A stretch of 64,000 bases of DNA from Rhynchobatus australiae (Eukaryota). Location: positions 38,383,016 through 38,447,015 of the forward strand of contig JAUZTB010000048.1 of assembly GCA_034780895.1 (NCBI GenBank), in the 5' to 3' direction. This document shows, piece by piece, positions 43,233 through 63,084 of the stretch. Made by a program: the position numbers and the translations under genes. Position 1 is the first letter of the stretch. Every line of letters starts with the position of its first letter. The notes beneath the pieces are model-generated. The model saw nothing but the letters and a program-made list of their open reading frames with translations, did no database searches and had not been told where the DNA came from.

Positions 43233-43419
43233 GAATGCCAGATGCAGAGCGCGAGGCACTGCAAGAAGAGTTGATTGACAGTATCTTGGAAGTACTGAAG
43301 AAAAATCCCCAGCTTCACTATTACCNNNNNNNNNATGACATTGTAGTCACCTTCCTTCTGGTTGTTGGTGAGAGAATGGCAACAGCCCTAGTGGAGAAAC
43401 TTTCCACACATCATCTCAG
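43233..43419 (+). CDS. TBC1D20: TBC1D20 exon 4 (GMPDAEREALQEELIDSILEVLKKNPQLHYY[QGYH]DIVVTFLLVVGERMATALVEKLSTHHLR)
   Basis: ttgtag acceptor, gtattt donor, 187 nt; nine Ns at 43326-43334 keep the frame and hide the glutamine finger. Confidence 0.95.
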
Positions 43420-45614: not shown

Positions 45615-46548
45615 GTGAGTGTATAGCTTTGGATTCATTACAGCAAGTGGTTTACAAACTTAGGGGAGCTCCTGCAATTCATCTAACTTATGGGCTCCAA
45701 GTTTTATTCCCCATGTCTATATTCTGTCTAGACAACAGTTGCAAAAATCTGAAATTGGCTACATGTTAGGGATTTGGCAGTCTGTTTAAAGACACTTTTC
45801 CTTTGTCCTTTGAAGAATTTGCTGAGAGGAGATAAACATCCTGTTGCAAATAACCAGGAACATGTGACGTGGGCTGTATCGTAGACCAAAGCTTTCCAGT
45901 AGTCCAACAGCTATTTAGGTTGATTCTAGCCCACGTGATAAGCTTGTTTTTCAAAAACTCAAAGGTTTTGTCAGTAGGAGACTTTGAATTGGGAGCCCTC
46001 TGATCAGAAAACTTGCCTTTAGACCCAAAACCTGGTATCTGGATATCAGCTCTTCCAACTCTAATGAAAGATTGTCAGAGAAATCAACTAATATTTGATC
46101 AATGAACTTAGTTTTATAATAGATAGAGAACCATTTCATAAAATAACTGATGTTCACCACAGTGTTTCCTGGAAATAGGAAACCTTAAGTTCTTAATAGA
46201 TGATCAAAAGAAACATGTTAACTACTGGCACTTAACTGTAGTGAAAACCTGAAAGGTTTGCAGTAACGTATCCTGGGATTTTTAAATCAGTTTTGCGCGC
46301 TCAAGAAAGACATGAGACACCTTACAGAGAATTGCTTTCTTGTAACTTTGTTTCAAAATTAAGTTTTGCTGTGCAGTAAAATGTTTTGTGTCAGGAACAC
46401 CAATGAGCAATTTTGTCCCCTGCAGGATCAGACAAACCTCTATGAAATGAAAGAAACCTGACATTCAGTCTTAAACAGGTGATAAGAATCTCTAAAGGGT
46501 ATTTACTTGCATTAAAGATTTTTCTGTTCCCTACTCTTTTTTTTGTAG

Positions 46549-46690
46549 AGCTGAAGTTGGTACAATTTTCGCCTTGAGCTGGCTAATAACGTGGTTTGGT
46601 CACGTGCTTTCAGATTTCCGGCATGTAGTTCGGTTATATGACTTCTTCCTGGCGTGTCATCCATTAATGCCAATCTATTTTGCTGCAGTG
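46549..46690 (+). CDS. TBC1D20: TBC1D20 exon 6 (AEVGTIFALSWLITWFGHVLSDFRHVVRLYDFFLACHPLMPIYFAAV)
   Basis: ttttgtag acceptor, gtaagt donor, 142 nt. Confidence 0.97.
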
Positions 46691-46842
46691 GTAAGTGCAT
46701 CTATTTCCTTCTCTTATTTGTTTTGGAATGAGAAAATTAATTTGTTCAATATTCTAGAAAGAATTCAGATTTTTCAACAGCAAATCAACTGAATTGGAGT
46801 TGGATGCTTAAATCTGTGAATTAATTCAAGTATTGAATGCTT

Positions 46843-47050
46843 GTCTATGTGGGTTTCCTCTGGGTGCCCCAGTTTCCTCCCACATTCCAAAAATGTACAG
46901 GTTAGGAGCTGTGGGCATGCTACTTTGGTGCTAGAAGAGTGGCGACACTTGCAGGCTGCCCCCCCGCTCCCCCCAGCACATTTTCAGTAATGCAAAAAGA
47001 TGCATTTCACTGTGTTTCCGTGTACATGTGACTAATAAATAAATATATTA
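46843..47050 (+). mobile_element. 5'-truncated V-SINE of the same family as 26593-26886
   Basis: Shares the V domain, the body gtgggcatgcta...ggcgacacttg and the tail gtacatgtgactaataaa. Confidence 0.85.
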
Positions 47051-47175
47051 CCTTAAAAAAAATCTGTTGGCTTTCTGATGATTCACCACCTGTTTTTATT
47101 GTAAGTTTCTATGTTAAGGGTCAGCTGGATGTAAAATGTTGTCATCCACATTGTGTTGTTTCATTATTTCTCCAG

Positions 47176-47354
47176 ATTGTATTGTACCGAGGTCATGAGG
47201 TCCTGGAGAGTGAATGTGACATGGCTGCTGTCCACCATCTGCTATCCCAGATCCCACAGGACCTACCATATGAGACTCTGATCAGCCGTGCTGGTGACCT
47301 CTTTGTCCAATTTCCTCCGTCCGAACTTTCCAGAGAAGTTGCTCAGAAGGAAAG
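47176..47354 (+). CDS. TBC1D20: TBC1D20 exon 7 (IVLYRGHEVLESECDMAAVHHLLSQIPQDLPYETLISRAGDLFVQFPPSELSREVAQKE-)
   Basis: tctccag acceptor, AAG|gtaaga donor, 179 nt, ends in phase 2; not in the ORF track. Confidence 0.96.
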
Positions 47355-50300
47355 GTAAGAACTAACCAGACTCGGAGCAAATTAATAGCAAATTTCTTTT
47401 AGTTAGAAGAAACCAAACCCTTTGATTTGCTGCTGAAGTAAGGTTCCTTGTTTAAGATTTGGTATTTTTAACCACTCTCATCTACCTTCAAGGCCAAGGA
47501 CCCATTTGCAATCCCTTCTCTCACAATGTTCCCTCCCTGTCCTTGTGAAAATAATCAGTCATGGGTTTTAACAATTCCGTCCAAGAGTGTTATCTGCAAG
47601 GAATGCTGGTGTGACTGACTTCAGTTCTGGATTATGTGATATTTCCTACAGCAGTGTGTGGTTTTGCTGCTGTCCTTTCTACTTATTTAGCCAAATAAAG
47701 TGGTGATGGCTGAGAGGCATTGTGCTGTTGACTCAGTCACTCATCCCTTTTGTAACAGGGGACATGCAGCCCAGTCAAACCTGCTTATGAAAGGAATTAT
47801 TAAAACCATGGTTTTCACCAGAATTGGGGGAAAGCATTTTGAGAGAAGGGATAGCTAATGGGCCCTTTGCTTTATGAAATCAATCTTCAGCAGTAATTTC
47901 TTTATATATAATTAAAAGTGAATAAAGTGTAAATGAAGGCTAAATCTAGGGAGGAGTCAGGTGAGATGTCAAACAAATCTCAGCAGTGGGCTCTGGTAAC
48001 CTACCGTCTGTATCCAATTGGCTTCATCCTTGAATATATTTTATTAGCTTGCATCAAAATTAGAGTATTCTGGGTAGAAAATTTATTTCTGTGAAGAATT
48101 TTTTATATGGTTCATAATTAGATTTTTGAGTGCATCTGACTTAAAATGTGAGATTCTCTTTGCTGTGGGTTTGTTGCGAATGAAATACTTGCTACCTCAT
48201 TTTTGTTTGGATTTTTTTCTCTGCTCTTGAAAGAAGCTATTTGTGTATGTATTGCATGAGCAGTGTTAAATATAATGGGGAGACTCAACTTAATTTACTT
48301 CTCCCTTCTGTTGCCAAGACAGGGACAGACTAATCTGGAACTTTCATGACTGTATAATAAGTGTGTCCAACATGTGTAGAGAGATGGAAAATGTTCATAT
48401 TTTAGTGATCAAGGCACAAATGCTCCGTTCTTTGGAATTTCTATTTAGTAACAAAATTGCAACAATTAGAAATGAAATTCCAAGTCAATCTAAAAACATC
48501 TCCTGTAAGCATTTGTAAAGGGAAATTGTAAAAGCTACATGGCGTTCATCAACTGCAGATTCGCCAACTTCATCTGGTCGAGTGAAAATAGTTCAAGGTG
48601 AGACGGAGGGTTTGGAAAACTAGAAGTTTGAATGTGATTTTTTTTTTGTCACTCCCCTGTAGACTTAAAAAATGATTCTACTTAGCTTTTATAAAGATTA
48701 GTGCACTTTGAGGGAGCTTGGCTTTCTGTGAAATTCCCAGCACTGAACCTGGTTAGTTAAAACTGGCTAGTATTGGTCTCTTCTAGAAGATTTGTCCAGC
48801 TGTGGAGAAAGAGGAGCGGTATATAAACTATACTTGGATTTCCAGAGGCATTTGCTGAAGTGCTGTGTCAAAAATTGTTGCAGCAAATAATAGCTCGTGA
48901 TATAGCAGATAACATTGGCAGGGATGGAGATCGTGAATTTGGGAGGTGGGGTCAGAGTAGCTGAGGCGAATAACTGAATTGTCTTTTGTGAGTCGGTACA
49001 CACTGCAGCCACTGTGCTCTGGTGACGAACAGAATGAATTTGTAGAATGGTTGATGGGTTCCTTTGTCCTGGATAGTGTTGAGCTTCTTGAGAATTGTTG
49101 GTACTGTACTTACCTTGGCAATTGAAGAGTTCTGTGCTTTGTAGATGGTAGAAAGGCTTCTAGTTGTCAGGAGGTGAGTAATTCACCACAGGATGCCCAG
49201 CCTCTGATCTGCTCTTACAGCCACCATATTTATTTTGCTGATCCAGTTGACTTTCTGATCAGTAAGAACCCCAAGGATATTGTTGGTTTTGAGTGGACTA
49301 TTCTTGCTTTTAGTTCATAAGTTTGTAAGGAATGTCTGTAAAGTAGTAATTTCTTTGCAAATCTTCTGAGATATGCAGAAAAATATTTTCCCTGAGTCAT
49401 ACAGCACAGAAATAGGCCCTTCAGCCCACCCTGTCCATGCCAGTGGAGTTGTACAGCTCAGAAAGAAATCCTTAAGGTTATATTTGTGACAAATGGTGCT
49501 ACAATTGGAGCTTAGTGCTAACATTGCTCCTGATGGGTGAACCCCTCCTCATTGCAGCTGGCTTTTATGACCTCACTTCCTTTCATTACAAATCAGTACA
49601 GTTTATTAAAAGATGCACGGTATTAATTTTGAGTTGCCTTTTATTATATAAAGGTCACACTGGTACGTGAAAACTAAATGTCAGAAGGATTTTGTGTGGA
49701 TTGAATAGAGCAGAGTGTCCTTTTAAACCATTATTCTTATGAATACTGATTGTCTGTATCTGTGAATGTCGCACTTCAACTGCCAAATTTATTTTTTTGC
49801 ATTTTACTGTTTACCCAGAGTAGCAGGCATATTTGCTAATGTAAGCTCCAGAAAAAAGAAATATACTATAATTTAAGACAATTGGTGACCATTCAACCTT
49901 GGTGGAAACTGTGATCTCTTGGGTTGTCTGCAGTTACTCTGACAGCACCTCATTCACTTTCCCATATCCATTTCAGAAGCTGAGCTGAATTGTGCTGGTG
50001 AATTTTGACTTGATGCACATAATTAGAAATTCCAGACTTTTTGTAGTATGTAAATGCTAACAAATGCTTTCAGTTATTCTGATGACACTTGGATTCACTT
50101 CATTTTGCTTTCTGTTTTACCCCTAATCAAAATATGCTTCATAGCAGAAGTTTTGGCCACTTGTGGTGCCCGCAGCTACAGTTACTATTAAAATAGCGAG
50201 CTATTAAAAACCCATAATCTCAATGTAAAGCCCCCGTTGATCAATGTTCCTGAGAGGCAACATTGACAAAATGCGTTCCACTTGTCTGGATGAACATGGA

Positions 50301-52564
50301 ACCACTCAGAACAATGCAATCCACTTGATTGTCATCCTATCAATCACCTTAAATTCATTCCTGCCACCACTGGCGCACAGTGGCTACATTTAGCATGTCC
50401 CACCTACAAAATGCACTGCAATTGTTAGCTTGCAGTTACTTTGAAAGCATCTCTACTGCCTAGAAGGGCCTAGCACACCATCACCTGCAGCTTCCCCTCC
50501 AAGTTGCATGCCAAGCTGACTTGAAAATACATCATTGTCCCTGGTATTCCTTCCACAACAGCACTGTAGGAGTATCCTAATCAGTAGGGGTGAAGTGATT
50601 CAAAAAGGCTGCTCACTACTACCTTCTCAAAGACAAATAAATGCTGGCTTTACCTGTGATGACCAGATCTTGAAAATGAATTATGTAATAGTTTAATATT
50701 ACTGTCCCCTGTTATTTTTCTTGTGAGCAGCAGAGACCAAGTAACGTAACCATTTCATTGGCTGCCTGAGAAAATAGTTCAGACTGGTACAAAGGTATCT
50801 ATGAAGATTAAGCCATTTCGTGTGTATAATAGTAGAGTGGATAGTGCAGTTAGTATTAAAATCTGAGCTTTCATTGATATCTTCTTTTCCTTGCAGGTTA
50901 TGTTCACAAGCAGAAAGCACCCCAGTGTAGTTTGGTCCTAAATTCACCAGTAAATATTTTTACACTTGAAGCTGATTAGCAAGTGGGGATATGTTATTTT
51001 ACAAAAAGGACATCTTTGTAAAGGATGGGAACATCTGTTTTAGTACTGTACTATAATAGGGCAGTACAGTGGGCCTGATACAGCAACAAGGCAATTTGTC
51101 TCCAACTCCATGCATTCTCCACTGTCATATTTAGATGACACAAATTTGATTCTGAACTCTGGCTTTGCAGTAAAGATCCAGTCTCAAGCAAAAGTGAGAA
51201 CGAGGAGCTGTGGGTTATAAACTAACCAGGGGAAGTGCTTTACTGTTTACCTGGTGCTTTATATGATCAAAATAAATGACAGGCAGAAAATTCAGCAGTG
51301 TTTACATTATAACAGCAAATTAAGACAGGGTAAGAGTTTTTAAATTAATGAACCACTTTTCAGTTTTGATGTTTGTAGTTTTATTCAATATAAAATCAGG
51401 GCAGCAGACCAGGATAAAGCATAACATTGTCACATGTAACTCTAAGATTAAGTTACTTGTGGTACCTATTTCACTCCACCTGCGTTTTTTTTTCATGCAC
51501 GATTATTTAAGTTACTAGATGTGACCACTAAGCAACCACCTCCATTCAGTGGGGAAAAGTCTGTCAGTCTGTTGTATTGATAGAGAAGATTAATAAAAGA
51601 TGAAGACCCTTAGTGGAACTGAAGCAAGGATGTAAGACTTCCGTCTTAGAGATTGGACTTTCCCTTTTTAAAATAGAGATGGTTAAGCTGGGGAAGGTTG
51701 GAGGAAGGGTAAATTTTTAAAGTGGTATTCAAAATAATGAAATTTTTTAAAGTACCTAATTAAAACTGGCAGGTAGATCGATAACCAGGAGGGACAGATT
51801 TAAATTAATTGGCAAGAGAACAATGGGAAAGGTAGGATTTTCTTTTTTTGCCACTTATTGAATTCTGGAATCCGCAGCCTGGTGCAAATAGATTCAGCAA
51901 TGACTTTTAAATGGGAGTTTGATAAATACCTAAATCATTTTGCAGGCCAGGGAAGTGAACTAATTGAATAAACTTTTCAAAAAACTGGCACAAGTGTGTT
52001 GAGCTAAATGAGGCCTTTTGTAGCCCTGTGATTGCATGATTCGATTAATGTTACTTTTCTCAATCAGTTGAAGGTAAATTGCTTACTCAGTTTTGAAATT
52101 TTCATCTGCATCTTCATCCTGAAGTGTTGAGTGGATAATTCCTCCAGAGGTCCCCACTATCGCAGAAGTCAGTGTTCAGCCAATTCGATTCGCTCCATGT
52201 GGTATGCAGTAACTGCTGAGTGCAGTGACAACTACAGGTCCCAGCAATGGCAACCTCCCGGCTGTTGTCTGGAAGGCTTGTGCTCAAATCATACTAGTAC
52301 CTTTAGCCAAGCTGTTCTGGTACTGCCGCCTACCTGACAATGCAGCAAGTTACTAGATGTGACCAACCCTCAAAAAAAAAAGCAGGGCAGATCCAAATGA
52401 TCTGATCCCCACCTATTCAGTTGACTTTCAATCATTAGCAAAGGGATGGAAAATGAAGTTGATGGTGCAGTCAAGTGGCAGTTGCTCATCAATAATCTGC
52501 CTATTCCTCTTTCCAGTTAGAGCAGGAATAACTGATTGTCCCATTGTCCATGTTTAAACCAAGG

Positions 52565-53002
52565 CTATAAAGAAATATAACAGTTATGGAGAGGGGTTGA
52601 GCAGGTTGGGACTGTTTTCAGTGGAGCATAGGAGAATGAGGGCTGATCTTTTAAAGGTGTATAAATTCATAAGGGGCATAGGTAGGGTGAATGCACACAA
52701 TCTTTTTTCCCAGGGTTGGGGAACAAAGGACTAGAGGGCATATGTTTAAGGTGAGATGGGAGAGATTTATTAGGGGCCTGAGGGGCATTTTTTTTCACCC
52801 AAATGGTGGTCAGTATATGGAATAAGCTGCCAGAGGAAGTGGTTGAGGCAGGTACATTATCAATATTTAAAAGGTATTTGGACAGGTACATGGAGAGGAA
52901 AGGTTTACAGGGATGTAGGTCAAAATGGGAATAACTTAGATGGGAATCTTGGTCAGCATGGACTAGTTGGGCTGAAGGGCCTATTTCCATGTTCTATGAC
53001 TC
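52565..53002 (+). mobile_element. CR1-type LINE 3' fragment
   Basis: SYGEGLSRLGLFSVEHRRMRADLLKVYK and TRGH.FKVR motifs; tail gggctgaagggcctatttccatgttctatgactc. Confidence 0.85.
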
Positions 53003-54739
53003 AACTCTTCCAAAGGTGAGACATGAATGACTTCACTTCAAGATGGCACATAACCAAAGGAGCTCTAATAAAATTGAAGATGGTGGGAATTAAGAGGCTG
53101 AAATCTCCCATGGCTGTAGTGATACCTAGAATGTTACCTGTTGACCATTTCCACCTCCCCTTGATGTTCAGTGGCATATCACTATAAACAGCCAACATTT
53201 TGGGTGTGAGGAGCAGGAGAAATTTAAATGATACAGCCACACGCATACTATGGCTGCTGGAACAAAGGATTAGCTTTTGTATAGTGGGTGACTCATTACC
53301 TGACTCCAAAGNNNNNCCTGATACCTTAAAGCCTTTCCACCAGCTGCAAAGCAGGTCAGGTCAGAATGCTCAAGCTCAATATATCATCGTGGACACAGCC
53401 ATATTCTTCTTGGCATCCCATCTCTTGCCCTAAACATTTGCTCGCTCCACCATCGAGTGCAGCCTGGCTCCATTGTGTGCCATTTACAAGATGCTTCAAC
53501 TCACCAACTGTCTCCCAAGTCCAAGCCTTTGGTCACTTTGAAGAACGAGAACCTGAGAGTTTCCCTCCATTTCGCAGATCATCCTGATCTGGGAATGAAT
53601 TGCTAAATAAGGGGTACCTGTTAGATAAGATGTTCCTGGATTTGGATCTGCTGTTCAAGAAGTGAAGATGGTGTGTCGTAGCCACAAGGACTGCAGAAAT
53701 TCAACACTCATTACTATCTTCTCAAGAGTAAATTGAGGATAAGTATTGAGTTCCTGGTTAGGACTGAGGTAACTGATCTGACAGAGTACTACTAATGACC
53801 AGAGGAGTGTGTGAGTGAAGGACAATGATGGAACATCGGCAAACTTCCCAGTTTGCTGGAAAAAGTTGAGTGAGTTGGGCAGTTGTACATGTGGGCTAGT
53901 AGCCTTAGAGTAGGAAACTGATTGTTGAACCAAAAGACTTGGGAAGTTCCAGCTGAATCCAGTCTAATAAAGTGGTGCTACTGAGTTAAAAGGATTGTTC
54001 ATACGGATGCTGAGATTTAACCATTAGTTAATGCTGGTATCTAATTCTTCTGAGCATTGCTTTCCCCCTCCCTATCCCATCCATTCAGAAATATTTATTA
54101 TTGGATTCCATTTAACAGTTGGTGGCTCTGTTCTTTCGACTGTACTCTCTCCGTGATCTCACTATCAGGGAATTTGAGTCTGTGTATTCACAGACTGGCT
54201 CAAGTAATTCCCATCTAGTTCCTGTATTTTACTGTCTTTAGCTACTTGAGAAAACTCTATAATTACTAGTGTATAGTTTTGCTACCAGTTTAAGATGACT
54301 GACTAAATGAAGAAGGCAAAAACTCTTGAAGAACAACCAGCCAAATTAAGGCTTTGGCAGCTGTAGTGTTATCTGGAATGGATGTTTAAAGAAGCATGTA
54401 TTTTGGGATTGAAAAAGTATTCGAAAGTCATGTTGTCAGATGTAAAGGCACAGGTTCAAGATTGGAAAGACAGATTTAGGCCTGATGTTAGAAAGCATTG
54501 CTTTACAGGATTTAAATGGGCTGTCAGAATTGTTTAACTAAAATTAAGGAAAGCCCAAAAATGTTCCATAACTGTATAAATAGTAAAGGATTAAGAGTTT
54601 GAGTTGAGAAAGGTAGCTTGTTGTGAGAGGGTCAGGTTTTGGTGAGGTTCTGATATAATAATTCACATCTTCATAGAAGGGCATGATAAATTGTAATTGA
54701 GGAAGATTGTGAAATACTGAATATGATGCAAGAGGAACT

Positions 54740-55600
54740 TTTAAATTGCTTGGGTATTCTTAAAAGTAAATAATTCAGCAGGCCAGGATAAAATACATCC
54801 CAGGTTATTGAGAGGACATGCTGAAGGTTCTGGCCATTATTTTCCATTTCCCACTAATTATTGGCATGGTGCTGGTGGACTGGAACATTGCTAATGTAGT
54901 GCCATTAATTTCTAAAGGATAAAGTGATAGACTGAGTAATTACAGGACAGTCACCCTAACCAGTCCCGTGCAAATTATTGAAAATAACTTGAGGCAGTTT
55001 AAATCATAATTTAGATGGTCAGAGATTAACTGAGTGCAGCCAGTATATGGATTTAAGGGAGGGTCATGTGTGACTAACTTGACTGACTTTGTTATGATTT
55101 CAGTGAGGGGAGTGGATTTAATATAGTCTGCAATGATTATGGTATGGCTTTTAACAAGGTCCCACAGCCAGATTGATCAGCAAAATAAAAGCCCCTGGAA
55201 TCCAAGGAGATGTGGCAAGTTGGATCCAAAATTGGCTCAGTCATGGGTATCAAAGATTAATGTTGTAGTAATGGGTGTTGTATTAAATGGAAGACTACTT
55301 TCAGTTGTGGTTCAGCAAGGCTCTGTGCTAGTGATGCAAGGCTTAAGTCATTGATTTACAGTATACACAGGAGCCAGGAATATGAAATTGGCAGATGATT
55401 TATTTGTAATGGTTTGTGTGGTTGGTGTTATGGATCAGAAAGGTGTGGACTCATGACAATGCCAATGGGTAGTCATACAGGTAGAAAAGAGGCAAATGGG
55501 CTCCAATCCAGAGAAGTGCATAGTAATACCTTTGAAGGGGGCACACAGTGCAAGGGAACACAGATAATATGGCACATGATTAAGAAGACGCATGAGATAT
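54740..55600 (+). mobile_element. Decayed CR1-type ORF2 (reverse-transcriptase N-terminal part)
   Basis: GQDKIHPRLLR, DWNIANVVP, SNYRTVTLTS, GRSCVTNL.DF and AFNKVPH remnants. Confidence 0.8.
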
Positions 55601-55619
55601 TTCTGGAGACACAAGACAT

Positions 55620-56250
55620 GGCAGGATGAACATTTGAATTCTCCAACTTCCAGTCATTGTTTCCCCCTCTGTCCCTTTTTCTATTTTCTCTCTGCTCCTG
55701 ATCCACCTGGCTCTCAACACCATGTCCCTCTCCCCTCTCCCACCCTCTCCATCTGCCCATTACCTGCACTCTCCTCCTGCCCTCCCCACCTCTCTCCCTT
55801 TATTNNNNNNNNNNNNNNNNNNNNNNNNNNNNNNNNNNNNNNNNNNNNNNNNNNNNNNNNNNNNNNNNNNNNNNNNNNNNNNNNNNNNNNNNNNNNNNNN
55901 NNNNATTACCTGCACTCTCCTCCTGCCCTCCCCACCTCTCTCCCTTTATTCCATGCTCCACCTTTCTCACCTATCAGATTCCATCATCCGCAGTCCTTTG
56001 TCACTTCCACTTGTTGCATCCGAACTTCTGACACTAAACCCACTCTCCCCTCCTCCATCTGCCTCTCACGCTCCTCACCTGGATCCACCTATCACCTGCC
56101 AGCTCTTGCTCCACCCCTTCCATCCACCTCTTTATACTGGCTCTCTCCCCTCTGTCTCTCAGTCCAGATGAAGGGTCTTGACCCGAAATGTCAACTGCCC
56201 ATTTCCCTTCACAGATGCTGCCTGACCCACTGAGTTCCTCCAGCTTTTTG
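55620..56250 (+). mobile_element. Penelope-like element 3' end with hammerhead-like motif, inserted between CR1 pieces
   Basis: ggatgaacatttgaattctccaacttccag resembles GMNIEFSNF; pyrimidine-rich UTR; motif at 56160-56197. Confidence 0.8.
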
Positions 56251-56924
56251 AGTGTTGTATATTTGTATTCATTGGTCAAGACACTGGAATACAAGACCAG
56301 GAAGATGATGCTTGAATTGTATAAAACACATTTCAGCCCACAACCAGAGCAGTGCCACATGGTTCTGGTCAGGAAGGTTGTCATCAGTGCTGGAGGTTTT
56401 GTATTTTATTGCCAGGGCTTGAGAAATTAGCTAGGCTGGGGTCATGTTCTTTCCAATGGGAGACTTCACCCAGATGCATAAAATTAGGAGAGGCTACAAA
56501 AGATCTGTTTCCCTTCGAAGAGAGGCTAATAAGTTGGAGTAGTTCTGAAGATAATCGTAAAAGGATTAGAGGGAAATTACTTCTGAGGTGGTGGAGAAGC
56601 TTTTGTGGTACTGTAACCCAGAAGGCAATGAACCAAAAGCTGGAGCATAAAATTTACCTGCACGGATGCACAGGGCCGAAAGGCTTCCTCTTTCACCACA
56701 AATTTGTGTCTCTGTAAATCTAGAAATTAAACCAATTTTACAAGATGACCAGATGCTGCATGACCTGCTGACTTCCTCCAGCAGTTTTGTGTTGCTCCAG
56801 ATTTCCAGCATCTACAGTCTCTCTTGTGCCTGTGTTTACAAAATGACCAGATGTAGCACGGGAAATGAATAGGATAGGTAAGATCTTGCAAGGTTGCAGT
56901 AAAATGTGTTGCACAGTATTTTTT

Positions 56925-57165
56925 CATTCATGTGCAGGGTGAGTTTTTTTTACATAGTGGTAGGTGCTTGGAAGACACTGCTAGGGGTGCTGGTAGAAGC
57001 AGACGCAATAGTAACATTGAAGAGGCGTCTAGACAGGCACATGAATATGAAGGCATATGGATCCTGTGCAGGCAGATGGGATTAGTTTAATTTGGCATCA
57101 TGGTCAGCACACATTGTGGACCAAAGGGCCTGTGTGCCCCTGTGCTGTACTGTTCTATATTCTAA
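56925..57165 (+). mobile_element. CR1-type LINE tail
   Basis: gtggtaggtgcttggaa...catcatggtcagcacacattgtggaccaaagggcctg...ctgtactgttctatattcta. Confidence 0.75.
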
Positions 57166-58333
57166 CCTTTCTTGTGATATAGTGAAATAACAGAATAGAC
57201 CAATAACATTCTTTGAGCTTTATTTGGATGATTTATGCTGGTTGTCTGCAGTAACTTAATACAGTAAAAAGCAAGGCTGCAATACCTTAAAGGATTAAAT
57301 GAAGCATTATTTCTAGTCCTGACCTTGTGCCTTTATGGAGCATGCTGAATAGATGCCATGTACAACGTACCACGAATGTGAGTGCAGCCTGCAAGTACTT
57401 TGTTCATTGAGCAGTTCTTGGGGAAGGTTGTGCTTCAGTAAAGAATTGATCAGGGAATTCTTGTGCTAGAGGAGGATGTGTAGGCTCACTCTGGTACTTG
57501 CATTGCAAGGGGAAGAAAGAACGTGTATTTATAAAGTAATTTTCACAGCAGCCCAGTGGTTTACAGCCAATGGAGTACGTTTGTAGTGCAGTCATGTTAC
57601 AAAGCAATGTGGTAGCCAATGTGCACAGCAGAATCCCACGTGTACCAGAGAAATAAATATCAGAGATTATCTGGTCATGAGCATCAGAAAAATTCTTGTG
57701 CTTTGAAGATGAAGACAAAAAATATTAAATGCTGAAGCTTTTTGAGAGGTTATAATGAGTCTATATCAACTAATTTGCAATGCTCCACTAATCATTTCAG
57801 ATTCTTGTTATAACCTGTCAGTTAATCGGTCAGGAGACTATCAGTATAGTTCTTTTCCAGGGCTACAAGGGTGCAAGCTTTTGTCCTTGGCATGGATAGA
57901 TCTGTAGCTATGCAGGGTGGTCATGGAATTTGAGGCAAGAGCTTTGTGCAACTTGCTGTTGAACAGTTATTCTTGGTATGTGAATGTCATATGGTGGGGT
58001 ATTTGAGTAACATTTTGCAGTATTTCATTGGAGTTCAAGGATAAAGGGAGCTAACTGCTTGATGTTTCTGGCTACGTAGTATTTCTGTAGCTGATGCCAA
58101 AGGCTATTACTACAGAACATTGGTTTAATGAACCCTGAGCCTCAACCATTTTCCTTAGAAAAACACCATCAGATAAGTCAGGCCATTGTTCAAGTAGTTG
58201 CACCATTATGGAGCAGATGTCCAGGATCATATGGCATAATATGGTCTAAATATTATTGCAGTGAATGGAGGTATGCTTTCCTAACAGCATTGTATTCCTC
58301 TTGCCATCTTTTGTTTTGTCTTTTCTGTTTCAG

Positions 58334-58387
58334 TTTATCCTGGATGCATTCTGTTGATCTCTTTAAACGTCACAGAATGGTGGCTGG
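58334..58387 (+). CDS. TBC1D20: Candidate alternative cassette exon of TBC1D20 (S-LSWMHSVDLFKRHRMVA-G)
   Basis: CTAAC branch point at 58281, AG-free pyrimidine tract, tttcag acceptor, GG|gtatgc donor; 54 nt, phase 2-2, no stop. No transcript evidence. Confidence 0.5.
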
Positions 58388-58809
58388 GTATGCAAAAGGA
58401 ACTTGAACAATTCAGCATGCTAAAATGCCTGTATAAATGGTTATTTCACAGAATAACGAATAAATGTAGCTGTAGACTTCAAAATAAAATGTATTTATTT
58501 TATGGCAGTCTGATGAAGTTTGAAAAATTTTTAGGAAGATGCACAACTAAATGTTAAAGGTTTAACTTTTTGAATTTAATTACTTTAAAGGTTATTGCTG
58601 TAATTTTAATGGGATTCTATTGGGCATTTTGAATAATGGCCCTAATCCCATTTTTGAATTTTGTAGTGTAATAGCATGCATGCATGAAGCAAGAAATTAA
58701 TTTTACAAAATGTACAGATTTAGGATCTTTTGAATTCCTCTTTTATCCCTGATTTCTCTTCTCCCCTGAAAGTCTTAACAAGTTTTCACTAATAATGTTT
58801 GTTATCCAG

Positions 58810-59050
58810 AGCCTCACCTGGGCTTTCTGGTGAGTGTTGGTTGGCTGTTTTACTTCTCATCACTGCTGTGAAATGCATTTCTAGCATAAGATACTGGACA
58901 GCAACAAAGAACGGGGGCCTGGCTTGTGTTGTTCCCAGTCCTTAGCTGGTCCACCTGAGATCAGTGAATGGAGCATCATTCGATCTCTCCTCTTCCTGAC
59001 CTGCTGCAAATTGAACTTATTGTGATAACAGGGCATCACACTGAGGGAAC
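58810..59050 (-). mobile_element. LF-SINE-like ancient repeat
   Basis: tttctagcataagatactggacagcaacaaagaacgggggcctggct...ctgagatcag resembles the reverse complement of the recalled LF-SINE core. Confidence 0.4.
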
Positions 59051-59198
59051 ATAGACATTTTTGACCAGGGGTGAATTCTAAATTAGAATTTCAAAATGTG
59101 TATTATGTTGACTTTTTTATCATCGGACTGAATAGGTTAACTTTTACACTGCATGTGATTTGTCTAATTGAGGATTTTGTGCCTGTCCACTTCCACAG

Positions 59199-59454
59199 CA
59201 CCGCTGTCTCGACCTTTAAAGACTTTGAACTGGTGTCAGCTCAGCAACATCCTGATACAGTGCTCCGGAGGCGGTTTAAAGACCAAGTGCAGCAAGCACC
59301 CAGAACGAGTACGATTGTGGCAATGACGGGGACCAGGAGGTTGATAAAACTGGCAGTGATGGGCCTGACTGTAGCACTGGGGGCAGCAGCCTATGCAGTG
59401 GTCAATAGTGCGTTGGAATGGGCACCAAAGTTTGAACTGCAACTTTTTCCATGA
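59199..59454 (+). CDS. TBC1D20: TBC1D20 last coding exon with C-terminal transmembrane anchor (TAVSTFKDFELVSAQQHPD...KLAVMGLTVALGAAAYAVVNSALEWAPKFELQLFP*)
   Basis: ttccacag acceptor; the eight exons total 1185 nt (394 aa plus stop); the C-terminus matches recalled TBC1D20. Confidence 0.96.
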
Positions 59455-61111
59455 AAGCGAAAGGCATTTTTAGCCAATTTACAAAACCCCAATCATCCAC
59501 TGGGAGAGAGGGGCATGGTTTTTTTTTGTTGTCATTGCCTTTTAGCTCTGAGTGCGTAACTGAAGACTGGAAGCGGGTTATTCCACACATTGGACTGGAT
59601 TGAACACAGAATTTTTTTTTTGACTGCCACTTCGTGCATGAGTGGCACCAAGGATAAAGCTGCAATATATTGCAGAATATCAATTTTATCACCACTTTTA
59701 TTTTTGAAACAAAATCTTGGGCTATGACTTGTTAAAAATCTACTGCCTCAAAGTGGTGCAACGTGAAGTTACCCCACTAAATTCTTATATGGCACGTTAC
59801 TAATCTTATTTATGTTATTGAGGAAAGGAGGTGGTTGTGCGGTGATGGATGTGCGATGAAGTGTGGTTATGTCCTAGCAGGAAAATTATTGTGCTATATA
59901 GAGCAGTGCGATGGCAGAATTAATTTATCTGTCTCCCCCCGCCCCCCACCCCCCCACCCCATACTAAAATGTAGAGCTTCTGAAAAGCACGTGGTAAAGT
60001 GGGGAAAGGATTGCACTGTTCTGTGCAAAAATTGATTTTTAACAGCATGCATAACCCAGGTAAGGAGAGGAGTCTTGCATCCTTAATGGTTAATGAAGCT
60101 GTTTCACATGTTACTCAACTAAATTTTGAGACATATAGTAGAATATAACTTGTTAAGCACTCTTTTATACCATACGATATCTAGAAGAGATCAGGCCCAG
60201 TGCCATCTCAGAAAATTGTTGAACTGTGCCTTGTTGTACATTCATTCCCCTGGCTTATTTAGCAAGAGCAGCATTTTGTTGAATTATGTAGAGCTGGAAG
60301 TGGTAGATTTGATTTCAGATTTCTGCAGTTTGCTGACCTCTATCAGGTTGGCATTAGGGGCCATTTGGCTGACAGATCCTGCTGTACAGTTTGCAATGGA
60401 ACAACTGAGTTTCCACCCCGCTAACTGGCCTGCCAACATTGACAGTGTGCAATCATGAATGGTCACTTTAGTTATTATCAACTTGACACTGTTCCACAGT
60501 TGGTGTCAATACCTTGAAGAGAGTGGGAGAAAATGGGTGATTGGAAATGAAATGCATGCCCTTTAATAGGATTAGATCATTGACCGAAGTTCCCAGTTCT
60601 TCACTCTACCTTCCTACGTGATTAACAGTGGTGGTGACTTAGTGCAGCAGAAGGTGCTGTGCAGTGTGTTGGGCCTTGGTTATGTGACCACACCATTACA
60701 CAAGGCGGGTGAACTTGGCATGTCTGTGAGCTTCCTGAATCCCATTCTCTCAGGGTAGTTATACTTTCTCTCTCAATTTTCTCATTTCACTACTATCCTC
60801 TAAATTGCCCTGCTTTTAGCAATCTTATCTGCACCATTGTGACGAGATACCTCAACTGTGATCTGCAGGATGTTTTTTTTTCCCCCTTGTGTTCTGGGTA
60901 GCACAATAAGTATCACAAACCAAAATAAGTATCTTGATATCACAAACCAAACAATCATTTTCAATTAGTGCAAAAACACTGTCTAATGAGCACTTCAATG
61001 CCAATTTTATCACTGTAGGATTAATTATATCATTGTAAATATGGAACATTGACTTAAGAAGTTAGTGGTACCTGTTCAACAAATGTGACACAGGCTACAA
61101 GCCAACTATTT

Positions 61112-61121
61112 AATAAATAAA
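61112..61121 (+). terminator. Candidate polyadenylation signal of TBC1D20 (two overlapping AATAAA)
   Basis: AATAAATAAA about 1.65 kb after the stop codon, with a PUM-type TGTAAATA at 61034. Confidence 0.5.
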
Positions 61122-63084
61122 TTTCAATTGATAGTTAAATTTTAACTGTAGTATATTGCAGCCTTAATATTGGTGTCAACAGGCACACTAACCTCACTAA
61201 AAGTGTTCGTAACTTGTCTTGCTAGCCCTTATAAGGCTGTATTGCTTGAGAATTTGGTATGAAAGGATTATGTTCTTGATATATTGTTAGCTTTGATGAG
61301 CAATATACAAATCTTTGATCCACTTTGTTTTTGTCATTACAAGATTTTACTAATAATTTTGTGAAACCACCCAATATGCTTAACTTATGGAATTAATGAT
61401 GGTAAAATAGCTATGACTTGTGCTATAATACAATTTTATTTTCGTTCAGTGTTTTCTTCCCACTGTTGATGTTTCTGCAGATAAAGCCACTTTGTTGGGG
61501 CTTGAATTCCGACCTTGATGTTTCCTTATCTACGTTACAGTTGCTATCTCCCATGAGGTGCTAGCCATGGCCTTTTATAGAGATGCATTCTGGATGGAAT
61601 TCATAATTGATGGAATACGGCCCTATGTTGACAAAATTTACATTTATTGCCCATCCCTATTGTCTTTGAGAATGTGGTGTGAGCTGTTTGTCATGAACTA
61701 CTGTAGTACTTGTGATTGGTGCTCCCACAGCCTGCAGCAGTTCATGACAGTGGCTCACCACCACCTTCTCAAGGACAATAAGGGTGGGCCATACATGTTA
61801 GCCTTGCCAATGGAGCCCACACTCCATGAATGAAAAATAAACTGTTCCTTCTATCCAGAATTAATCTCTGCAAAAGAGATGACGAACACCCCCAAGAAAG
61901 CAGCAACGTTACCACTGTTACTCACTTCATGCATAAGTTCCCTTTAGTGCCTGTAACTGATGGCGACCCATTATGCTGTGGTCAGGCTTATCTTCTGAAA
62001 CCCACTCTTGGCCCCTTGATTTGTTGCAGGTAGGAATGGAGATCGAAACTAAACCACTAGCTACAGATTTTAATAACACACATTTTTGTCAGTCAAATGG
62101 GGACCTGATGACCAAATGTGATATGCCTTGGATTATTATTGTGGTTGACTTGATTGCCAGAGGTGGAGCTTTTAAGATGAGGTATCAGAGAGAGGAGCCA
62201 GTGCCTCAGTTTAGGATTAATGTACAAGAACTCAGGTACTGTTTGAACAGAAGTAGAGTTGTTCTCGCTGTTGTAAGAAATATCTGGTTATTATCACAGC
62301 TGTTGGTCAGAGCTTGTTCTTGCATTTTCCACTTTACAATAGTGACTCCATTGATTGTAAAGGGCTTTGGGCATTCTAAAAGGTGCTATATAAATTTGAG
62401 TGTGTATTTTTTAATTTAATAAAGGGTTATTAACAACTAAAGCAGAATTACTTTGCATTATAAATTCTAAGAACAAAGCCATTAGCGTCCATCTTTCATT
62501 GGTCAATCTGTCACAAAAACCGGATACAAAGGTTTGTAATTTTAGCACTCTGGTACTGTTTAATACAGGACTAGGTCTAATAAAGCTTTCCTTATTAAGA
62601 TAAATTTGTGAATTGTAGTGAGATTTGTTTGTGCATTTGGACCTTTTCAATGGTCGACCATTTTCTGAAGGCTTGACTTCTGAATCCTGCAGTCCTTTAG
62701 TTCTACGTGTCTTTACATCACACTTACCCATTCAAGTGTAGACTTCATTCTGTCAGTCAAATTCATGCATTAAAATTTGGTTTGTAGGTTACTTCCCAGT
62801 TAGCTGTATTGTTTGAAATTAACTAAATTGCACCTTAGATAATTTGCCTTTTGTGCATACTAATTAGACTGATGTACATTCCACTAATTACCATCTAATC
62901 TTGTACAGTGAGTAACTAATTTGCACAACGGAGGGGTCAGTTTTAGTGTTGCAGCTCTGTAAGTTCCTACTCCAGCCTTGGCAGGGGCAACAGGAAAGTA
63001 CTACAGCTAGTCACCAGCTCCTTGGCCAAAGGAGAAGAAACATTCATAGTCTGTTCACAAGCTTGCCAGAGCCTAACATCTAGG

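Follow-up and report, generated by a model that had tools for sequence, protein, structure and literature searches.

A close described counterpart of the element considered here is a microexon of Snap23 that is activated by RBFOX2 and QKI, and whose inclusion was shown by RT-PCR, knockdown and minigene experiments (PMC12064062). GCAUG upstream of an exon represses it and GCAUG downstream activates it (PMC11874969). A first-pass annotation of the DNA described below relied on this positional rule, holding that downstream RBFOX and QKI motifs promote inclusion, and the rule is indeed in print (PMC11874969, PMC12064062). Microexons are held to a limit of 51 nt (PMC12064062, PMC4317164). Decoy exons, also described from vertebrates, outnumber real exons about tenfold (PMC3098058). 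TBC1D20, the gene concerned, encodes a GAP for RAB1 and RAB18, the loss of which leads to Warburg Micro syndrome (PMC10641524, PMC3283470).

A 54-nt block in the last intron of TBC1D20 of Rhynchobatus australiae resembles the Snap23 microexon (PMC12064062): it is a short in-frame candidate exon, its donor is weak, (U)GCAUG and ACUAA motifs follow downstream, and its insert would fall between domains. It departs from Snap23 in the spacing and form of its motifs, which in Snap23 lie within 300 nt, whereas here the QKI-like motif is at a distance of about 400 nt and the two TGCATG are overlapping parts of a single repeat; the candidate is also longer than the 51-nt limit and no inclusion of it was seen. 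The block is likewise similar to the decoy exons of vertebrates, being a pair of splice sites at exon distance in a long intron that is absent from the transcripts and proteins seen, although, compared with a typical decoy, its branch point is better and GCATG is more frequent downstream of it.

Methods

The window is the whole stretch of DNA that was analysed, 64 000 nt of contig JAUZTB010000048.1. Splice sites were scored in bits with our own rough matrix, made from consensus frequencies, and the scores have meaning only relative to one another. Chance rates came from two null models, order-4 Markov simulation and block shuffling, each run 60 times.

Among the best 120 of 358 matches, a protein search with exon 8 gave TBC1D20 proteins, with sharks at the top. 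The set of proteins compared numbers 244, in which sequences are not independent and teleosts are few; three lack the exon 8 anchor, seven lack the exon 7 anchor and 234 have both flanks. Chondrichthyan proteins were represented by 22 of the 54 members of three clusters (4/4, 15/47 and 3/3), from 17 species and including nine batoid proteins. Four of six available contig sets (X1, X2, X4 and X6) were aligned with 46400-60400 of the window. Contig sets X1, X2 and X4 are presumed to be of RNA type (spliced), and come from one study of one related species with unlabelled tissues, which differs from the window at 2 of 141 positions in exon 6 and at 4 of 178 in exon 7. The standing given below to each explanation is an estimate from the chance rate together with the negative protein and RNA evidence.

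Organization of the locus

The window contains the CSNK2A1-TBC1D20 locus, in which the 3′ part of the casein kinase 2 alpha gene lies upstream of TBC1D20 on the plus strand. The translation of exon 8 is 97.6 % identical to a sawfish TBC1D20 protein (P0130), and hydropathy reveals in it a C-terminal hydrophobic segment that we take to be the membrane anchor. The last intron, intron 7, is 11.8 kb long and contains all of the exon-like elements discussed here (Table 1). Elsewhere in the gene, isoform X2 of sawfish TBC1D20 has an alternative N-terminus (MKCQLKLI) to which the segment 34026-34052 (plus strand) of intron 1 corresponds; judged by this match, the segment is likely to be an alternative first coding exon. 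We also note a 9-N gap inside exon 4 (43326-43334), and a 46-nt exact duplicate within 55759-55950, on both sides of a 100-N gap (55805-55904), which is probably an assembly overlap.

Table 1. Features of TBC1D20 and of its intron 7, numbered from the first letter of the window
Feature	Position	Strand	Remarks
TBC1D20 coding exons (n=8)	starts ~33046, 37553, 40010, 43229, 45513, 46549, 47176, 59199	+	
TBC1D20 exon 7	47176..47354	+	phase 2 end, AAG/gtaaga; joined to exons 6 and 8 in RNA-type contigs
Stop-containing candidate exon	50897..50930	+	10/11 residues, and the stop, shared with horn shark TBC1D20 isoform X3 (P0124)
Branch-point-like hexamer CCTAAC	58280..58285	+	branch A ~50 nt upstream of acceptor
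AG-free pyrimidine-rich tract (44 nt) and acceptor AG	58288..58333	+	7.5 bits, own matrix
Candidate exon, 54 nt, phase 2-2, stop-free	58334..58387	+	skipped in RNA-type contigs
Weak donor TGG/gtatgc	58385..58393	+	0.9 bits
In-frame TGA 58404-58406, then AATAAA 58459 and 58483, U-rich run	58404..58488	+	
GCATG	58415..58419	+	28 nt past donor
GCATGCATGCATG, palindromic 4-base tandem repeat, two overlapping TGCATG	58674..58686	+	sole one in window
Second exon-like unit, consensus-type donor CTG/gtgagt	58773..58829	+	6.0 bits
ACTAAT, QKI-like or branch point	58788..58793	+	21 nt upstream of 58810 acceptor
TBC1D20 exon 8, coding part	59199..59454	+	carries hydrophobic C-terminal anchor

The 54-nt block and its splicing signals

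The letters on which the first-pass annotation based its proposal of a cassette exon are there. Its branch point CCTAAC was found, its AG-free tract of about 44 nt measures 44 nt (58288-58331, before acceptor tttcag/58334), and the exon that it delimited is a stop-free multiple of three with the 2-2 phase of intron 7, followed by the donor letters TGG/gtatgc and, farther downstream, by the GCATG, GCATGCATGCATG and ACTAAT motifs. The gene, the intron, the phase and the location of the 18-residue insert in the linker between GAP domain and anchor had been assigned correctly too. The end of exon 7 is in phase 2, exon 8 opens at 59199, and an insert of 54 nt is compatible with these phases. In the protein, the insertion point comes after the Pfam TBC domain, about 10 residues past the region present in PDB entries 4HL4 and 4HLQ, the solved structures of TBC1D20 (query residues 9-290), and about 50 residues ahead of the hydrophobic anchor. 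Two frames are open through the block, the phase-2 one (LSWMHSVDLFKRHRMVA) among them, and at 54 nt it is too long to be classed as a microexon. An AG at 58286-58287 stands immediately behind CCTAAC, and the AG-free zone starts only after it.

The acceptor score falls inside the range of the five real TBC1D20 acceptors that were scored (1.8-8.3 bits), and the donor score is below those of all five real donors that were scored (4.3-6.8 bits). Acceptors as good as this one or better occur 21 times on the plus strand of the window and 16 times on the minus strand. The minus strand has nothing comparable to the full package of signals. Stop-free in-frame units with an equally good acceptor are expected 0.67 times (Markov) or 1.15 times (shuffle) per window; if a branch point and an acceptor of at least 5.5 bits are required, the expectation under the two nulls is 0.22 and 0.52 in-frame units, and with at least one downstream TGCATG in addition it falls to 0.017 and 0.033, or about one in 30-60 windows. 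Such a package is thus uncommon in any one window, yet is to be expected many times in a genome scan. The exact set of features, which was chosen post hoc, arose in none of the 60 simulations of either null.

Four GCATG lie within 500 nt downstream of the candidate, a density reached in 0.7 % of 500-nt windows, and the real exons of TBC1D20 have at most one downstream GCATG each. The two overlapping TGCATG (58677 and 58681) belong to a (GCAT)n repeat, which gives TGCATG twice on the minus strand too, and over the window TGCATG shows no strand enrichment (27 plus, 24 minus). From the donor of the block it is 287 nt to the repeat and about 400 nt to ACTAAT. An RNA bridge that would move the GCATG cluster toward the donor was considered and rejected, as 58380-58720 folds no better than its shuffles (z -0.38).

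As for the origin of the block, a transposon or tandem origin was set aside within the scope of repeats in the window, there being no self-BLAST match in 57000-61000 and no tandem array, and a local duplication of the upstream GGTATGC was unsupported. Rfam gave no matches in 47000-62000. Directly upstream of the branch point, at 58268-58287 (plus strand), there is a donor-like GAG/gtatgc followed by TTTCCTAAC; the two are loosely like the consensus signals of the minor spliceosome, probably by chance.

Transcripts and DNA of related species

Each of the three RNA-type sets has one unbroken contig that runs through exons 6, 7 and 8 and the 3′ UTR, and the GT..AG joint from exon 7 to exon 8 (47352-59197) has depths of 54.7 (X1), 34.1 (X2) and 58.6 (X4). 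No joint at 58334 or 58387 is found among the 15 joints listed for these sets, beside which 873 more exist. Contig depth over 58075-58541 is 0, 0 and 0.5, the last value coming from a low-depth intronic piece (57924-58164). By the joint from exon 7 to exon 8, skipping of the 54-nt block is the main form in these three samples of a related species, although assembled contigs drop rare variants, so that minor or tissue-restricted inclusion is compatible with the result. In a separate part of the intron, the depths of X1, X2 and X4 are near-identical in bins 48268-48734 and 51070-51536 (23.7/23.7, 38.7/38.1 and 5.98/5.98); a DNA-type run is at background in both bins, and a repeat shared between them was looked for and not found.

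The DNA-type set X6, from a ray relative, covers 57966-59861 with one contig in which, over 1896 letters, there are 57 substitutions (3.0 %) and 22 gaps. Seven other intronic pieces differ by 1.7-3.5 % in X6 (computed by hand), and by this comparison, which has low power and concerns the piece as a whole rather than the exon within it, the exon-bearing piece is no better conserved than they are.

Related proteins and database searches

The insert that the 54-nt block would encode is in none of the 234 vertebrate proteins in which both flanks are anchored. The spacing of the flanks is 18-23 residues in 233 of them, and the exception is isoform X3 of a paddlefish TBC1D20-like protein (P0103, XP_041096069.1), which has a 21-residue insert at the exon 7/8 junction. 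We rejected this insert as a homologue of the candidate, as the two have no sequence similarity. The insert is likewise missing from all 22 chondrichthyan proteins (of 54 cluster members), in 20 of which exon 8 follows exon 7 without a break, and two of which have alternative last exons. Elasmobranch ends of this kind past exon 7 are those of the RefSeq models horn shark X3 (XP_067904720.1) and manta X2 (XP_072100003.1). These two models and paddlefish X3 thus have extra sequence at the same intron or junction as the candidate, but the 54-nt block is matched by none of them; for the horn shark end the match is at 50897-50930 instead.

When a 56-residue read-through peptide holding the exon was compared with 5.8 billion clustered proteins there were no candidates, and among 1.84 billion representatives there were no matches at E 0.001; for an element of 18 residues both results are weak. 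Scans of metagenomes gave no relative of TBC1D20 exon 8, and a 24-base acceptor pattern was not matched exactly in them. In the literature searched on TBC1D20 splicing, isoforms and microexons no pointer to such an exon was found, nor any paper on TBC1D20c, presumably an anchor-less mammalian isoform.

Other exon-like elements of intron 7

If the donor of the 54-nt block is not used, the reading frame comes to a TGA 17 nt past it. The stretch 58334-58488 thus has an acceptor, an in-frame stop and downstream AATAAA, as an alternative last exon would. The two AATAAA are 24 nt apart, and the plus strand has only two further pairs spaced within 40 nt, in a window that is AT-rich and holds 58 AATAAA on the plus strand and 73 on the minus strand.

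A second exon-like unit lies 400 nt away and has a summed score higher than that of the 54-nt block. Its donor is the only (C/A)TG/gtgagt in intron 7. From the AAG acceptor at 58773 the unit is 57 nt long, in frame, stop-free and hydrophobic; from the CAG acceptor at 58810 it is 20 nt long and shifts the frame. CTAAT precedes the 58810 acceptor by 21 nt and CTGAT precedes the 58773 acceptor by 24 nt, and the GCATG cluster is 124 nt upstream of 58810. Since ACTAAT lies at branch-point distance from the CAG acceptor, the QKI site proposed in the first-pass annotation may instead be a branch point.

The third element is the stop-containing candidate exon at 50897. Its acceptor has the top score in TBC1D20 (9.4 bits) and opens 11 codons and a stop, which agree with the C-terminus of horn shark X3 in intron, phase and stop position, and it is the only element of intron 7 with cross-species support. 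A possible donor at 50949, 19 nt past the stop, would make it a 53-nt cassette; alternatively it could be a last exon with the AATAAA at 51271. By the 50-nt rule for NMD, the stop is near enough to that possible donor to escape. The match may reflect either selection or slow evolution of elasmobranch introns, and the sequence suggests that use of the exon would yield an anchor-less, soluble form of TBC1D20.

Discussion

The proposal that the 54-nt block is a likely cassette exon gained no support from usage or conservation, with RNA contigs that skip it and with empty protein and peptide searches; this does not refute it, but the evidence leans against it, and that the block is a real feature, in the sense of an exon in use, is improbable. 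With no transcript or related protein containing it, an unused look-alike is a better expectation than a hidden exon of brain or muscle, and we consider the block to be probably a decoy (pseudo-) exon in the last intron of TBC1D20. It has the splice-site-like pair at exon spacing inside an intron by which decoy exons are recognized. The T-rich tract and the CTAAC hexamer make a good acceptor. The donor TGG/gtatgc would be expected to pair poorly with U1, so that exon definition would fail and the spliceosome would join the strong exon 7 donor straight to exon 8, a joint that is seen in all three samples from the related species. As one 4-base tandem repeat, the GCATG cluster does not have to be an RBFOX site under selection and may be without function, and inclusion would then be at most low-level noise. 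Against a decoy stand the resemblance to the regulated Snap23 exon (PMC12064062), in which RBFOX and QKI motifs likewise lie downstream of a weak donor, and the facts that the combined package is uncommon, that the GCATG density is rare and that the sampling of RNA and of shark and ray proteins is limited (15/47 in the main cluster).

Several other readings of the same letters have to be weighed against a decoy. The block might be a real, lineage-restricted and tissue-specific in-frame cassette, for which RBFOX at two sites (58415 and 58674-58686), perhaps together with QKI at 58788, would help U1 onto the weak donor in neurons or muscle, and whose 18 extra residues would alter the reach of the linker between GAP domain and anchor or the binding of partners. 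Its anatomy is coherent, from branch point, 44-nt AG-free zone, length, phase and absence of stops to motifs on the activating side, it has the low chance rate given above, and the linker tolerates an insert in at least one gene model (the 21 residues of paddlefish X3). We nevertheless regard such a cassette as unlikely, given that three RNA-type runs join across the block with no inclusion contig, that 234 proteins with both flanks lack the insert (the paddlefish one being dissimilar), that the large protein databases gave no peptide match, weak though this is for 18 residues, and that the 3.0 % divergence of the ray-relative DNA lies within the range of other intron pieces, a comparison of low power. 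The GCATG cluster and ACTAAT could serve the second unit instead, with upstream RBFOX repressing it and the 54-nt block either a bystander or regulated oppositely; ACTAAT or CTGAT would be the branch point, and the 20-nt form would shift the frame of exon 8 and remove the anchor without NMD. The strength and uniqueness of the donor in intron 7, the branch points at 21 and 24 nt and the open 57-nt form speak for the second unit, as does the place of the cluster on the side that represses (PMC11874969). Its acceptors, however, are moderate (5.1 bits for AAG), it is spliced over in the RNA-type contigs and no insert or end of such a kind occurs among the proteins examined, and we hold it to be very unlikely that the motifs act there. 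Least probable in our estimation is an alternative last exon, in which exon 7 would be joined to 58334 and read on to the TGA, with cleavage past the AATAAA at 58459 or 58483, to give a soluble, anchor-less TBC1D20. A strong acceptor with a weak donor, a nearby stop, the AATAAA pair and a U-rich run would suit it, and the horn shark X3 and manta X2 models do have an alternative last exon behind exon 7, but neither end matches the stretch at 58334, AATAAA is frequent in so AT-rich a window and the RNA-type contigs continue from exon 7 to exon 8.

The elements could also be imagined to act together, batoid intron 7 being a tissue-controlled switch for the anchoring of the RAB1/RAB18 GAP in which RBFOX at the GCATG cluster would turn the 54-nt unit on, to give a longer linker or, were the unit a last exon, a soluble form, and the 20/57-nt unit off, with the 50897 exon adding an anchor-less form. 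We think it very improbable that the intron works in this manner. Tissue-controlled anchoring of TBC1D20 was not found in the literature searched. The exon at 50897 is the better lead, and matters more than the 54-nt block, because it is conserved between shark and ray. If the 54-nt block is a decoy exon, as we favour, it illustrates how intron sequence offers a persuasive splicing code to the reader about once per 30-60 windows; were it real, it would be a young, lineage-restricted regulated exon in the TBC1D20 gene of cartilaginous fish, of modest interest as a member of the well-known RBFOX-type class.
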